NCBI GenBank assembly: GCA_963657245.1
Contig: CAVKLJ010000003.1
Location: 65,219 to 129,218 of the forward strand
DNA from: Lachnospiraceae bacterium
Lineage (GTDB): Bacteria; Bacillota_I; Bacilli_A; RFN20; CAG-826
Length of the DNA stretch: 64,000 bases
Direction of reading: 5' to 3'
Below are positions 8,319-60,418 of the stretch, in pieces (position 1 is the stretch's first letter; the number at the start of each line of letters is the position of its first letter). The translations under genes were made by a program, and so were the position numbers. Below the pieces are notes generated by a model. That model was given only the letters and a program-made list of their open reading frames with translations, made no database searches and was not told the DNA's origin.

Positions 8319-8477
8319 AAGCCTTAAACCCATCAAACCTCAAGTCTAATCTTCATATTTTCGTTCTAAGTTTGATTTAACATAAATGAAATCGATTATT
8401 TAAAAACGAATGTCTTATCAATTATTTGGTTATTTTGCTCCAGTAACTTGCCTATAATTACAGTTAGTGGAGCAAAT

Positions 8478-9076
8478 ATGATAAGTACAACAAAAATATT
8501 GTTAGAAAAATACAACGCATTTGGCGATCCATTTAAACAAATAAAAAGGTTGGTTTCAAATGGCGAACTAACACCAATCATTAAAGGCCTATATGAAACA
8601 AATCGTAATGTTGATGGATATCTTTTGGCTGGAGCAATTATGGCCCATCATACCTATCGTTCGACTTTGCTCTATCCTATTACGGCTTAATCCCCTAAAG
8701 AGTTTATACATACACGTCCGCTACATGTTTAAAAAGAAAGTCTAAAGAATATATAACCAAATTCGGTAACTTTACATACCAAGACATTCCTTCTTCTGCA
8801 TTTTCATTGGGGGTTAAAATCAAAGAAGAAGACGGGTACACATATCTCATCGCAACACCAGAAAAGGCTTTATGTGACAAGTTATATTCGCTTAAGCCTG
8901 TTTCTAATCAACAAGAGCTAAAAACATTGTTGTTTGATGATTTGAGAATAGACGAAATTGAATTTAACAAATTAAATATCGAAGATATACGCATTTTAAC
9001 TGAGACTTATGGCTCAAAAAACATATCTCTTTTATACAAAATCATGAGGAAAAATCGAAAACAAAATTTGAAATAG
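8478..9076 (+). pseudogene. Decayed type IV TA antitoxin AbiEi-family gene
   Basis: Track ORFs 8448..8690 and 8807..9076 are the two halves of one AbiEi-like protein (...GELTPIIKGLYETN..., ...GVKIKEEDGYTYLIATPEKALCDKLY). A +1 shift near 8640 restores GPSYLSFDFALSYYGLIP. An in-frame TAA then sits where family members have Glu (IP*RVYTYTS). Confidence 0.7.
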
Positions 9077-23623: not shown

Positions 23624-23675
23624 ACTTCTAGATCCTAGAAGTTTTCTAGAAGTGAACTAGAAGTTTTCTAGAAGT
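23624..23675. repeat. Word module 1: inverted ACTTCTAG followed by 4 x CTAGAAGT at 11-bp period
   Basis: ACTTCTAG is at 23624. CTAGAAGT occurs at 23635, 23646, 23657 and 23668. The module starts 6 nt after the upstream stop codon. Confidence 0.9.
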
Positions 23676-23769: not shown

Positions 23770-23821
23770 ACTTCTAGATCAGAGAAGTTTTCTAGAAGTA
23801 GTCTAGAAGTTTTCTAGAAGT
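23770..23821. repeat. Word module 2, homologous to 23624..23675
   Basis: ACTTCTAG is at 23770 and a degenerate AGAGAAGT at 23781. CTAGAAGT occurs at 23792, 23803 and 23814. It has the same 11-bp phasing and sits 146 bp from module 1. Confidence 0.9.
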
Positions 23822-23877
23822 TGAACTTGATTTTTCAACTTTTAAATCTAAAATATAGAATGAAACGAGGTGAGAAT

Positions 23878-25329
23878 ATGTTGCTTGATGAATTGATAAA
23901 AGATAAATTCTTTGAAACTAAAACTGCAGAATTTAAGAGCGAGCTTAACCCGGTTAAACCCCTAAGTTGGCTTAAAACAGTAGACGCGTTTGCAAACTGT
24001 GAAGGCGGAACAATCTACATAGGTGTAAATAATGAAACCTATGAGCTGATCGGTTTAAAAAGAGAAGGTGTGGATTTTCAAGTTCAAACTTTTATAAAAA
24101 CCGTTAAAGAACATTTTCAATCAATCCCAACATATTCCTTTAAATACACAAAATTTAAGAACGAAAACAACGAGGAACGTTTCTTATTAGAGATAAAGAT
24201 TGAAGAATCTAGAGCAAAGCCGATTGTTTTGACCTACGATGGCATACCATCGATATACGTTAGAGATGAGGGAAGAACATCTTCTGCGACAAGCGAGCAG
24301 ATAAGACAAATGGTTCTATCCACTTCTTCTATTGATTTCGATTGTATTGAAACCGATATTCCATATAACAAAGGCGACTTTAAGCTCCTTTTTGCTACAT
24401 TCAAAGAGAAACACAAAGGAGAAGAATTAACCGAAAAAATCCTTCGCTCGGAAAACTTCTACTCCGAAAAGGGTTTTCTTTATAAGGGCTCCTTACTATT
24501 CAAAGACGATTTCGTGGGTCAAGAAACAAAAACCGTCTGCATCAAGTGGAATGGCATAAACAAAGGTGACTCAACTTATCTAAATGAGCAGGAATTCAGC
24601 GGCAACATTCTTCAAAATATTGAATCTGTCATCGATTATATCGAGAAGAATTCTGACAGTGGTTTCCTTAAAGAAGACCGTGGCAGAAAAACGATATATT
24701 CCTATCCAAAACGCTCTCTTTTTGAAGGAATGATTAACGCTTATGCACATAAAGATTATTTTATCGCCAATTCAGAAATACACGTGAATCTATTCAAAGA
24801 TAGATTGGAGATAACCTCCCCCGGATCTTTAGTTAATGGAGAAACTTTTTATCGAAATGAAAACCTCATCGAAATTGATCCAGTAAGAAGAAACGATAAA
24901 ATATGCGCCATATTAAAGGTTCTTTTGCTTATGGAAAAGAATGGAACAGGGTTCTCGAAAATAGAAGATGATTATTCCGGTTTCGGGAAGAAATACGCCC
25001 CACTCATCACATCAAATAAGATGTCGTTCACATTGACCTTGCCAAACCTTCTTTCTCCTACAGGAATCATCAATGAAGATACGACTGACCTTCCTCTCTT
25101 CTATGAAAACAAAGGCGAAGAAAAGAAAAACGACAAAACCATTCTTTCATATTGTTATTACAGTCCAAAAACCTTGGAAGAAATCGCCAACACTCTTTCT
25201 GTCAAAGTTTCTTCCTACCTTAGAAATGACATCAAAAACAGATTGGTGAATAATGGTTTATTGCTTGAAGGCAAGAACAGAAACGCCATAACTTATAAAA
25301 CAAACACAGAACTAGTTAAACTAATCTAG
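23878..25329 (+). CDS. AlbA_2 plus HATPase_c_4 putative DNA-binding ATPase/regulator, paralog 2
   Basis: I prefer the start at ATG 23878 over the track's TTG 23821, because it has the RBS GAGGTGA and aligns with the paralog N-termini (MLLDELIK...). Motifs are TKTAEFK, AFANCEGGTIYIGV and EGMINAYAHKDYFIANSEIHVNLFKDRLEITSPG. Confidence 0.75.
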   Translation: MLLDELIKDKFFETKTAEFKSELNPVKPLSWLKTVDAFANCEGGTIYIGVNNETYELIGLKREGVDFQVQTFIKTVKEHFQSIPTYSFKYTKFKNENNEERFLLEIKIEESRAKPIVLTYDGIPSIYVRDEGRTSSATSEQIRQMVLSTSSIDFDCIETDIPYNKGDFKLLFATFKEKHKGEELTEKILRSENFYSEKGFLYKGSLLFKDDFVGQETKTVCIKWNGINKGDSTYLNEQEFSGNILQNIESVIDYIEKNSDSGFLKEDRGRKTIYSYPKRSLFEGMINAYAHKDYFIANSEIHVNLFKDRLEITSPGSLVNGETFYRNENLIEIDPVRRNDKICAILKVLLLMEKNGTGFSKIEDDYSGFGKKYAPLITSNKMSFTLTLPNLLSPTGIINEDTTDLPLFYENKGEEKKNDKTILSYCYYSPKTLEEIANTLSVKVSSYLRNDIKNRLVNNGLLLEGKNRNAITYKTNTELVKLI

Positions 25330-59252: not shown

Positions 59253-59310
59253 ACTCAAAGATTTTATAACATAGCATATTTCTGTCACTAAATATCGATT
59301 CTTTAGTGAA

Positions 59311-59367
59311 GTTCTAAAGAGTTCTAAATATTGAAAAAAGTTCTAAAATGTTCTAAAATGTTCTAAA
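59311..59367. repeat. Array of 5 x GTTCTAAA overlapping the promoter of 59381..60418
   Basis: Exact 8-mers start at 59311, 59321, 59340, 59350 and 59360, giving spacings of 10, 19, 10 and 10. The last copy abuts the RBS AAGGAGGG. Confidence 0.9.
59331..59359 (+). promoter_or_regulatory. Putative promoter of 59381..60418 (TTGAAA-N17-TAAAAT)
   Basis: The -35 lies in the 19-bp gap between words. The -10 is formed by the 3' end of the word at 59350. Confidence 0.5.
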
Positions 59368-59380
59368 AGGAGGGCATCCC

Positions 59381-60418
59381 ATGTCAAACCCATTTTCCAC
59401 CACATTCGGAATTGAACCAATCAATTTAATAAAAAGGACCGAAGAAACCGAAAAAATAATCTCTGATTTTTCAGATGAAAATATTGCAAATTACGTTTAT
59501 ATCATCACAGGATTAAGGGGAAGCGGTAAGACGGTTCTCCTATCAACCATAGCCAATAAGCTAAAAGACGATGATAATTGGGTCGTCGTCGATCCGGGAC
59601 CAAAAGATAATATTTTAGAAAACATTGCTTCGGAGATTTATGAAACGTGTAACCTAAAGAAACTATTTATCAAAGGAGAATTCTCATTTTCCTTTCAAGG
59701 CATAACTTTTTCTTTAAAGGGAAAGGAACCTACTACCACAGTCATGAGTCTTTTAAAGAAAATGATCGGCTACATCAACAAAAAGGGCAAAAGAGTTTTA
59801 ATAACAATTGATGAAGCTGATAACAGTGAACAAATGAAAATATTTATTGAAGCGTATCAAACACTCATCAGACAAGGCTATAAAGTTCTCTTGCTGATGA
59901 CTGGCTTATATGAAAATATTTCAAAACTTCAAGATGATAAATCTTTAACGTTTCTGTATAGGGCTCCAAAAATTGTTCTTGGCCCACTCAACATTTCTTC
60001 GATTTCTTTGGCCTATCAAAAATACTTAGAGGTCGATGAAGAAATTGGCCTAAAACTTGCTAAATTAACCCGTGGATACGCATACGCATATCAGGTTCTC
60101 GGTTATTTAATGTACACATACAAAACAAAAGACATAAACAAAGACATCCTTGGAGAATTCGATCAATATCTTGCTGATTATGTCTACGGCAAATTATTCT
60201 CTAAACTTAGCTCTAAAGAGCAAGACATAATCATCTCAATGCTTGATGACTCTCCGATAAAAAACGAAGCATTAAGAGAAAAGGTTGGCTGTGACATAAA
60301 GACTTTGAGCGTCTATCGGGACAGGCTTATAAAGAAAGGCATTCTTTATTCTCCTAAGTATGCATATTTGGATTATGCTTTGCCAAGATTCCGTTATTTC
60401 TTGCTAACTAAGATATAA
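59381..60418 (+). CDS. AAA/ORC-like ATPase with C-terminal wHTH, paralog 2 of 2
   Basis: 345 aa and colinear with 9244..10293. Shared blocks are NPFS..FG, GLRGSGKT, EFSFSFQG.TFS.KG, DD.SLTFLYRAPKI and LTRGYAYAYQ. Confidence 0.7.
   Translation: MSNPFSTTFGIEPINLIKRTEETEKIISDFSDENIANYVYIITGLRGSGKTVLLSTIANKLKDDDNWVVVDPGPKDNILENIASEIYETCNLKKLFIKGEFSFSFQGITFSLKGKEPTTTVMSLLKKMIGYINKKGKRVLITIDEADNSEQMKIFIEAYQTLIRQGYKVLLLMTGLYENISKLQDDKSLTFLYRAPKIVLGPLNISSISLAYQKYLEVDEEIGLKLAKLTRGYAYAYQVLGYLMYTYKTKDINKDILGEFDQYLADYVYGKLFSKLSSKEQDIIISMLDDSPIKNEALREKVGCDIKTLSVYRDRLIKKGILYSPKYAYLDYALPRFRYFLLTKI

Follow-up and report, generated by a model that had tools for sequence, protein, structure and literature searches.

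How does it come about that two related genes in one stretch of bacterial DNA are each preceded by a dense array of short, regularly spaced repeats, and are those repeats read by the proteins that the genes themselves encode? The question is raised by a 64,000-nucleotide stretch of DNA from a Lachnospiraceae bacterium (GenBank assembly GCA_963657245.1, contig CAVKLJ010000003.1, positions 65,219 to 129,218 of the forward strand), referred to here at its full length as the window, in which the genes for two P-loop ATPases with a predicted C-terminal winged helix (paralogs A and B) each lie downstream of such an array. An original prediction, made from the letters of the window, held that the two genes share one promoter and operator architecture, and that each repressor had diverged together with its operator after a gene duplication. 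The analyses described below, in which this layout recurs among hundreds of uncharacterised relatives from gut bacteria, point to a large family of self-regulating and probably ATP-driven DNA-binding proteins, in which the repeated word changes together with the DNA-reading helix. The reading that we favour, and regard as likely, is that these proteins are small ATP-binding autorepressors, each of which uses its own C-terminal winged helix to read a private word, assembles head-to-tail on phased repeats, and has co-diverged with those repeats.

Word arrays and their spacing grammar

Upstream of paralog A the word GTTCTAAA recurs five times as a direct repeat, and upstream of paralog B, on the minus strand, the word AAGTACAA recurs six times; the positions, copy numbers and spacings of both arrays are exactly those that had been predicted (Table 1). 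Five of the 11 copies of GTTCTAAA in the window crowd into 57 bp, as compared to approximately 4.8 copies expected per 64 kb on both strands, and six of the eight copies of AAGTACAA crowd into 76 bp, as compared to approximately 2.7 expected per window on both strands; both arrays are therefore far beyond chance. Array B consists of a 39-bp module duplicated in tandem (2 x 39 bp). A scan of the window against Rfam gave no match, and an RNA element is thus not supported.

An independent promoter scan returned TTGAAA-17-TAAAAT at 59331-59359 on the plus strand (10 of 12 positions matching) and TTGAAT-17-TACAAT at 10345-10317 on the minus strand (9 of 12), each being the top-scoring predicted promoter near the start codon on the strand of its own gene. 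The placement of the -35 element within a 19-bp gap, with a -10 element following 17 bp further on from the end of a word, was thereby borne out; in both arrays the final bases of a word, together with one or two more, make up the -10. A Shine-Dalgarno sequence of the AGGAGG type and then an ATG come 8-12 nt past both predicted promoters, all within about 20 nt, leaving predicted leaders of only 15-17 nt. The notion of a common architecture holds for the general plan but not for the exact layout, which in gene orientation is two words, -35, three words for A, and one word, three words, -35, two words for B. Similarly, the two words (AGTTCTA and AGTACAA) do differ at two positions when compared over seven, as had been claimed, but that alignment shifts the register of the one word against the other, as seen from their promoters, by 3 bp.

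The family to which the two proteins belong is large: more than 5000 clusters at 90% identity match paralog A, and among clusters at 50% identity a profile search picked out 617 with E<=1e-30 and 1877 with E<=1e-10. Its members, nearly all of which are 340-370 residues long and carry generic names only ('ATP-binding protein', 'KAP NTPase', 'NB-ARC domain protein'), are common among Bacilli, Erysipelotrichaceae and Lachnospiraceae of the gut and rumen, many genomes having several paralogs. Homologous loci were collected in four sets: (i) 80 genomic loci whose proteins are 41-86% identical to A, from Bacilli, Erysipelotrichaceae, Lachnospiraceae, Butyrivibrio, Acholeplasmatales, Ligilactobacillus murinus and Lachnospira eligens; (ii) at least 27 metagenomic loci from an alignment centred on B, mostly distant (23-44% identity); (iii) 11 loci for proteins of the B lineage, collected singly; and (iv) four plasmid homologs from isolates. 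Upstream words were compared across 109 non-redundant homolog loci, reaching down to approximately 23% identity, the word of each locus being the most frequent heptamer in the 150-160 bp before the start codon, picked by count alone. The loci come mostly from metagenome-assembled genomes, with start codons set by a simple rule and promoters predicted as consensus matches.

At most of these loci the top upstream heptamer is present four to ten times, as direct repeats on the coding strand, and the successive spacings (taken over the 109 loci) are 10 bp in 48% of cases, 19 bp in 23%, 20 bp in 5% and 9 bp in 4%. A periodic-word score of at least 3 was reached by 47 of 78 upstream regions of the family, and by none of 447 upstream regions of other genes at the same loci. 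The 10/19 grammar is retained in homologs with 23-40% identity, with the words AATGACA, ACAGTAA, TCGTGAA (nine copies), TTACACA and GACTAAA, and plasmid homologs carry arrays as well: seven copies of ATACTAAAG in Pseudobutyrivibrio xylanivorans, five to six of AGTAAAA in Lactobacillus crispatus, and four of TATAAAC in Bacillus subtilis. The original prediction had named an absence of upstream arrays from homologs as evidence that would count against it; arrays across distant homologs and on plasmids clearly contradict such an absence. The possibility that the arrays are repeats of chance or of replication slippage, devoid of function, draws on the AT-rich genome and on the recent 39-bp duplication in array B; given the clean result in the control regions, and a grammar conserved across proteins of such low identity, it is effectively refuted, with a negligible residual probability.

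Across the family, upstream gaps between words resemble decayed copies of the gap that bears the -35 element, and because of this, as well as the recent duplication in array B, it appears that arrays lengthen as whole modules are duplicated in tandem. The 29-bp module corresponds to 2.76 helical turns, so that successive pairs would be out of phase on relaxed B-DNA; a spacing of 19 bp was counted in 113 cases versus 23 for 20 bp, and this strong preference over 20-21 bp is a hint that the DNA is wrapped or overwound in the complex.

A further array lies approximately 170 bp beyond array B, within the same intergenic region of about 550 bp: six ACTTCAA words (10558-10621, plus strand) follow one another at spacings of 11, 12, 11, 12 and 11 bp (a 23-bp period), unlike the 10/19 grammar of the family.

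Table 1. Arrays, predicted promoter elements, genes and protein motifs of the two paralogous loci, in window coordinates
Feature	Position	Strand	Remarks
Array A, five GTTCTAAA words	59311..59367	+	starts 59311, 59321, 59340, 59350, 59360; spacings 10/19/10/10
Array A, 10-bp unit (A/T)GTTCTAAAN	59311..59367	+	
Predicted -35 of paralog A, TTGAAA	59331..59336	+	within the 19-bp gap of array A
Predicted -10 of paralog A, TAAAAT	59354..59359	+	17 bp past the -35; 3' end of word 4 contributes
Shine-Dalgarno of paralog A, GGAGGG	59369..59374	+	predicted leader ~15 nt
Paralog A, 345 aa	59381..60418	+	PF01637 ATPase_2, Orc1/Cdc6-STAND-like fold, C-terminal winged helix
Walker A of A, GLRGSGKT	59510..59533	+	residues 44-51
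Predicted recognition helix of A, IKTLSVYRDRLIK	60296..60334	+	residues 306-318; word bases co-vary with 306, 307 and 313
Array B, six AAGTACAA words	10318..10393	-	plus-strand starts 10318, 10328, 10347, 10357, 10367, 10386; plus-strand spacings 10/19/10/10/19
Predicted -35 of paralog B, TTGAAT	10340..10345	-	within a 19-bp gap of array B
Predicted -10 of paralog B, TACAAT	10317..10322	-	17 bp past the -35; 3' end of last word contributes
Shine-Dalgarno of paralog B, AAGGAG	10300..10305	-	
Paralog B, 349 aa	9244..10293	-	same family as A
Predicted recognition helix of B, KGYLAIYKKKLSD	9343..9381	-	residues ~305-317; placed by alignment with A

Words and recognition helices

Paralogs A and B share 42% identity along their entire length (E=4e-91). 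In the AlphaFold2 model of A (predicted local distance difference test, pLDDT, 88; predicted template-modelling score, pTM, 0.86) a P-loop domain and a helical domain are joined by a canonical winged helix at the C terminus, which has helices at residues 278-285 and 295-302, a recognition helix at 306-318 and then a wing. The recognition peptides quoted by the original prediction as differing between the paralogs are present in the two proteins.

In every ortholog collected for the B lineage (61-96% identity) the word is still AAGTACA, the grammar is unchanged and the -35 element lies in the gap; relatives at 45-48% identity carry AGTATAA, ATTACAA or ATGATAA. Proteins of the A lineage that are at least 60% identical mostly go with AGTTCTA; two of them, at 62-64% identity, have AGTTATA instead, together with an altered start of the recognition helix. 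Where family genes stand in tandem, some 1.2-2.1 kb from start to start, their private words differ: TTGATAA versus AGTTCTA at one locus of the homolog sample (L010, 2817-5017), and again another private word for each gene at a second (L103, 3001-5718).

Residues and words were tabulated for 70 non-redundant proteins with clear repeat units. Lys307 accompanies TCTA within the word in 13 of 13 cases, as compared to none of 57 otherwise, Thr306 accompanies AGATATA in 10 of 11, and Lys313 (Y-K in place of Y-R) goes with an AC(A/G)A core in all eight cases, as compared to three of 62 otherwise. The highest mutual information between any residue and base, in the whole protein, is that of Ile306 with base 3, and the pair of Lys307 with base 5 is among the top four, which places the covariation at the beginning of the predicted recognition helix. 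A partial Mantel test, in which distances between words were set against distances between recognition helices with distance in the NTPase domain controlled for, yielded r=0.34 (permutation p=0.0005), and the reverse partial yielded 0.17. The correlation between recognition-helix residues and word that the original prediction had put forward as a check is thus present, and we regard this covariation in the sequences as supportive, if not decisive, of a protein that reads its own array. The paralogs of the window fit the pattern, with Lys307 and Arg313 of A accompanying GTTCTAAA, and a glycine at the aligned 307 position and Lys313 of B accompanying AAGTACAA. As for the proposed co-divergence after duplication, the covariation speaks for the co-divergence; the duplication itself is old, with both lineages having orthologs of their own in other genomes.

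The arrays might also be read by another factor, or work by nothing but the shape of the DNA (phased A-tracts, or curvature of the UP type), with the adjacent protein not being the binder at all, and an AAA every 10 bp within the repeat units would indeed curve DNA intrinsically. However, the part of the word that lies outside the A-tract varies with the recognition helix of the adjacent protein, orthologs keep the word while the gaps diverge, tandem paralogs carry different words, and the upstream regions of neighbouring genes are without such arrays. Covariation with the adjacent protein thus argues against another factor or shape alone, and we consider an explanation of that kind highly improbable.

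Promoter geometry and the direction of regulation

The placement of words relative to the core promoter was compared at 60 loci having a clear array and a recognisable sigma-70 match. At least two words lie between the best -35 and -10 elements at 47 of these loci, centred near -24 and -14, and at least one word does so at 55. At loci of the Bacilli type (both window genes included) the -35 occupies the 19-bp gap and extra pairs are located upstream, near -42/-52 and -71/-81; at loci of the Lachnospiraceae type a near-consensus TTGACA is followed by a pair that supplies the -10, and extra pairs are located downstream, near +5/+15 and +34/+44, in the transcribed leader. The predicted promoters are often close to the consensus TTGACA-17-TATAAT. 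In both arrays of the window the sites overlap the predicted core promoter of their own gene, as in an autoregulated factor with a direct-repeat operator. A word pair within the core promoter, which is the classical position of a repressor, at promoters that appear strong enough to work without an activator, suggests autorepression. Of the originally proposed co-divergence of a repressor and its operator, it is the co-divergence that the helix and word tables bear upon; the role of repressor is taken solely from where the sites lie.

In the mechanism that we propose, the recognition helix (residues ~306-318) would read a word of 7-8 bp, and protomers would load head-to-tail, usually pairwise, on direct repeats 10 bp apart, with the pairs 19 bp from one another and linked by the 29-bp module. 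One pair would sit between the -35 and -10 elements of the gene's own strong promoter, the -10 being partly made of the word, and the occupied array would block RNA polymerase and so lead to self-repression. The extra pairs, whether upstream (Bacilli type) or in the leader (Lachnospiraceae type), may provide for cooperative and probably nucleotide-gated oligomerisation, such gating being suggested by likeness to proteins of the STAND, Orc and DnaA types. After a duplication, helix residues and word would shift jointly, leaving each paralog with a private operator and no cross-talk. We infer binding of the words by the protein, the resulting repression, the control of assembly by ATP, and any function beyond autoregulation; candidates for the cellular role are control of variable downstream cargo (for example, polysaccharide clusters) or of distant targets. 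A more far-reaching version of the mechanism, in which ATP-gated, head-to-tail filaments of NOD-only ATPases on phased repeats would represent a nucleoprotein switch not described before, and the family would hold hundreds of mutually orthogonal protein-operator pairs obeying a readable residue-base code, in which residue 306 would correspond to base 3, residue 307 to base 5 and residue 313 to the AC(A/G)A core, is offered tentatively, as a possibility that we hold to be more doubtful than probable.

Several observations weigh against the mechanism as laid out here. Fewer than two words lie between the best predicted -35 and -10 elements at 13 of the 60 loci, and a few loci (L030, L032 and L080) have no clear array. 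The covariation statistics ignore shared ancestry, and many columns of the NTPase domain are also high in mutual information. In STAND proteins, the winged-helix domain (WHD) normally packs on the nucleotide rather than binding DNA. Regulation of nothing but the own gene makes little biological sense, and with no other target found the picture is incomplete. Finally, both window arrays have words well upstream of the core promoter (centred near -52/-42 in array A, and near -78 to -39 in array B), and in a plasmid homolog from Pseudobutyrivibrio (L239, 15190-15413) all seven words lie upstream of the -35 element and abut it, with a 10/29 spacing, in an activator-like arrangement.

These last placements, together with the fact that the STAND regulators MalT, AfsR and GutR are known as activators (PMC10427625), favour an activator or a concentration-dependent dual regulator, in which RNA polymerase would be recruited by the pairs upstream, the core pair serving only to cap the maximum output. 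Against such a regulator stand the fact that the feature kept at most loci is the pair inside the spacer and the -10, the position of the remaining words downstream of the predicted start site in the Lachnospiraceae type, and core promoters that are near consensus. Activation or dual control is therefore considered unlikely, and autorepression is retained as the favoured reading.

Protein fold, known systems and genomic context

Both proteins belong to PF01637 (ATPase_2), with scores of 35.2 bits (A) and 40.1 bits (B) against a gathering threshold of 33.2 bits, and a match to that family is precomputed for most homologs. Sub-threshold Pfam matches of A and B include AAA_16, nSTAND5, NB-ARC and KAP, as well as weak matches to C-terminal winged helix-turn-helix (HTH) models; the same scan gave no match to Bac_DnaA and none to repeat domains. 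The Orc1/Cdc6 model of NCBIfam (TIGR02928) gave 13.9 bits for B, as compared to a cut-off of 181.3, and no match for A; the GerE/LuxR HTH model matched B only, at 16.7 bits and below its cut-off of 23.5, the predicted structure showing a winged helix. NCBIfam and PADLOC scans of the two proteins gave no family-level match, the weak PADLOC matches to defence proteins being limited to the ATPase/P-loop region (E>=1e-5), and a sequence search of the PDB returned P-loop noise only.

Structural comparison by Foldseek identified the NOD fold (nucleotide-binding domain, NBD; helical domain; winged helix), with matches to Apaf-1 (3sfz), NRC4 (9cc8), from among the plant NRC resistosomes, and MalT (8bob) at a Foldseek probability of 1.0, and also the Orc1/Cdc6 fold (AAA+ base, lid and C-terminal WHD), with matches to 1fnn (E=9e-12) and 2qby_A (E=4.5e-11) at a template-modelling (TM) score of ~0.5, and to the further archaeal Cdc6/Orc1 entries 2v1u and 1w5s, DNA-bound complexes included. 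The best global match was the PF01637 protein PABY2304 (2qen; TM 0.69). A P-loop NBD of the STAND type with a pre-Walker A segment is present: neither family alignment shows any variation at G44, G47, G49 or K50, R46 and T51 are fully conserved in alignment A1 and almost so in A2, and the invariant residues further include D144 (Walker B) and P4, F5, F9, G10 and R19. R194 and the N-terminal NPF..FG..R19 segment are conserved across the family. The sensor or repeat domain of STAND proteins (TPR, WD40, LRR or SUPR) and a separate effector are both lacking, the protein stopping ~25 residues past the winged helix. As judged from the model of A, both proteins are minimal NOD modules of the Orc1/Cdc6-STAND type, with nothing past the winged helix. 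The label 'AAA-HTH', by which the paralogs had initially been described, is loose, since Foldseek points to a PF01637/STAND-like module and not to a classical AAA protein.

A conserved motif, EFSFSFxGxxFSxKG, occupies residues 98-114 of A (59672-59722), with F101, S104, F105, G107 and G114 invariant across the family; residues 98-109, though lying inside this motif, are the sole low-confidence part of the AlphaFold2 model (pLDDT <50). The segment may serve in oligomerisation or in contacting DNA, and take up its fold only within the complex.

Autoregulation by way of direct repeats, and ATP-dependent oligomerising DNA binders (MalT, Orc1/Cdc6, DnaA), are already known kinds. In MalT, the N-terminal loop makes contact with G44 of the P-loop through R19, a residue on which oligomerisation depends, just as DNA binding depends on oligomerisation (PMC10427625). 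The present family shares with MalT, AfsR and GutR the P-loop NOD module and a conserved N-terminal loop ahead of Walker A, R19 and G44 being invariant in the family, and it shares with MalT the presence of several binding sites in the same orientation per promoter. In contrast to MalT, which is ~900 residues long, these proteins are of the size of A (345 residues) and have neither a sensor repeat domain nor a separate LuxR or SARP effector; DNA is apparently read by the NOD module's own WHD; the predicted target is the own gene; and the sites overlap the core promoter in a repressor-like position, whereas MalT activates. The ORB recognition repeats of archaeal Orc1/Cdc6 proteins adjoin the protein's own gene, and those proteins (1fnn, 2qby, 2v1u, 1w5s) and the family are alike built of three domains, the last being a winged helix of DNA-binding type; here, however, short words of 7-8 bp stand strictly as direct repeats, phased by 10 and 19 bp inside a predicted promoter, the hosts are bacterial, the genes are multi-copy and without a link to replication genes, and membership fails at the level of sequence.

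PABY2304, from Pyrococcus abyssi, has in common with both window proteins its membership in PF01637 (ATPase_2), a family with many paralogs per genome. DnaA, an ATP-bound P-loop/AAA+ protein with a C-terminal HTH, assembles head-to-tail on direct sites ~11 bp apart (the low-affinity boxes of oriC) and autorepresses its own gene; it differs in belonging to an unrelated sequence family and in using one universal box rather than many private words. Iteron-binding plasmid Rep proteins combine direct-repeat arrays and autoregulation with specificities that diverge among related elements, but are without an ATPase domain and use iterons of 17-22 bp in helical phase, whereas the gene described here is solitary, chromosomal and without a replicon context. 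No description of the family or its arrays (that is, a NOD-only architecture with the WHD as reader, the 10/19 grammar, and many private words) was found in the literature searched, the coverage of which is incomplete and does not prove absence, and no function, DNA target or operator grammar was found there for PF01637 proteins. The fixed cis-regulatory grammar is a first functional handle on a large and entirely uncharacterised family. If confirmed, the proposed mechanism would mean that the NOD module of STAND/Orc-type ATPases alone can serve as a sequence-specific transcription factor. The family also offers a natural system for the divergence of regulator and operator after duplication, with candidate specificity residues in hand, and is a possible source of orthogonal repressor/operator pairs for engineering Gram-positive and gut bacteria.

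No conserved neighbour or operon partner was found across the 80 loci of the first set; the next gene downstream is convergent in 44 of 97 cases, and a same-strand gene lies within 150 bp in only 31 of 97. In some Butyrivibrio and Pseudobutyrivibrio members (L025/L027 and L239) the family gene stands at the head of glycosyltransferase or polysaccharide clusters. The order HAD-A-MFS of the window is common only with the closest relative (L001, CAVKFY010000029.1). That contig is labelled Alistipes communis; since it is syntenic with the low-GC, Bacilli-like window across the genes for TetR, HAD, paralog A and MFS (74-88% protein identity), it is probably mis-binned.

Within the window, word pairs with up to three mismatches match at the paralogs' own promoters only, with no second target, and the 433 kb flanking 64 homolog loci hold two extra exact word pairs outside the own promoters, one of which extends its own array. 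The only candidate for a non-self target is found at L029 (1832-1870), where AGTTATA occurs three times at 10/19 spacing, 48 bp upstream of an FBPase-class-3-like gene and 2 kb from a family gene that uses AGTTATA; it is absent from the relatives L044 and L057. Given the lack of a conserved neighbour and the near absence of word pairs outside own promoters, gene and array form a self-contained module.

Only distant homologs are located on plasmids (31 plasmids), and phages contain essentially no family members; a phage or plasmid origin was therefore rejected. Viral contigs scanned for the AGTTATA pair gave single, chance-like matches and no arrays. A related proposal is that the arrays are iterons, akin to an origin or centromere, and that the protein serves a mobile element as an initiator of the Orc1/Cdc6 kind or as a partition factor, with the overlap with the promoter being secondary. 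Iteron replicons and archaeal origins typically have an array of direct repeats beside the initiator gene, the best structural matches include archaeal Orc1/Cdc6 bound to origin DNA, and the distant homologs on plasmids, as well as abortive-infection (Abi) or toxin-antitoxin (TA) genes near some loci, would agree with this idea. It is opposed by the presence of two copies 49 kb apart in one chromosome-like window, by the lack of a conserved integrase, relaxase or other mobile-element neighbour, by a register to the -35 and -10 elements that is exact at most loci, by the near absence from phages, and by the low TIGR02928 score; we accord it very little probability, and autorepression remains the preferred account of the arrays.

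Beside paralog B, short broken open reading frames (8448-9076, plus strand) occupy the position of an intact AbiEii gene in the ortholog of 96% identity; this synteny and their sequence led to the guess that they are remnants of AbiE, but a Pfam scan of two of them gave no match. AbiEii or Abi_2 genes also flank two distant homologs. The coordinates at the homolog loci concerned are L115 1134-2003, L240 544-1374 and L118 1616-2506, and a defence or TA-island context is occasional in the family, not conserved. On the other side of paralog B, the region 10846-11757 (plus strand) holds a Fic-domain gene (11122-11757) preceded by an in-frame HTH-like segment that a stop near 10858 interrupts; a frameshift in the gene, or a wrongly set start, may account for this. 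Elsewhere in the window, two copies of approximately 50 bp (23625-23675 and 23775-23822) of a CTAGAAGTTTTCTAGAAGT-type repeat with a period of 11 lie upstream of an open reading frame of 483 residues (23878-25329, plus strand) with SLFN_AlbA_2 and HATPase_c_4 domains, a second and unrelated putative regulator with a repeat array of its own.

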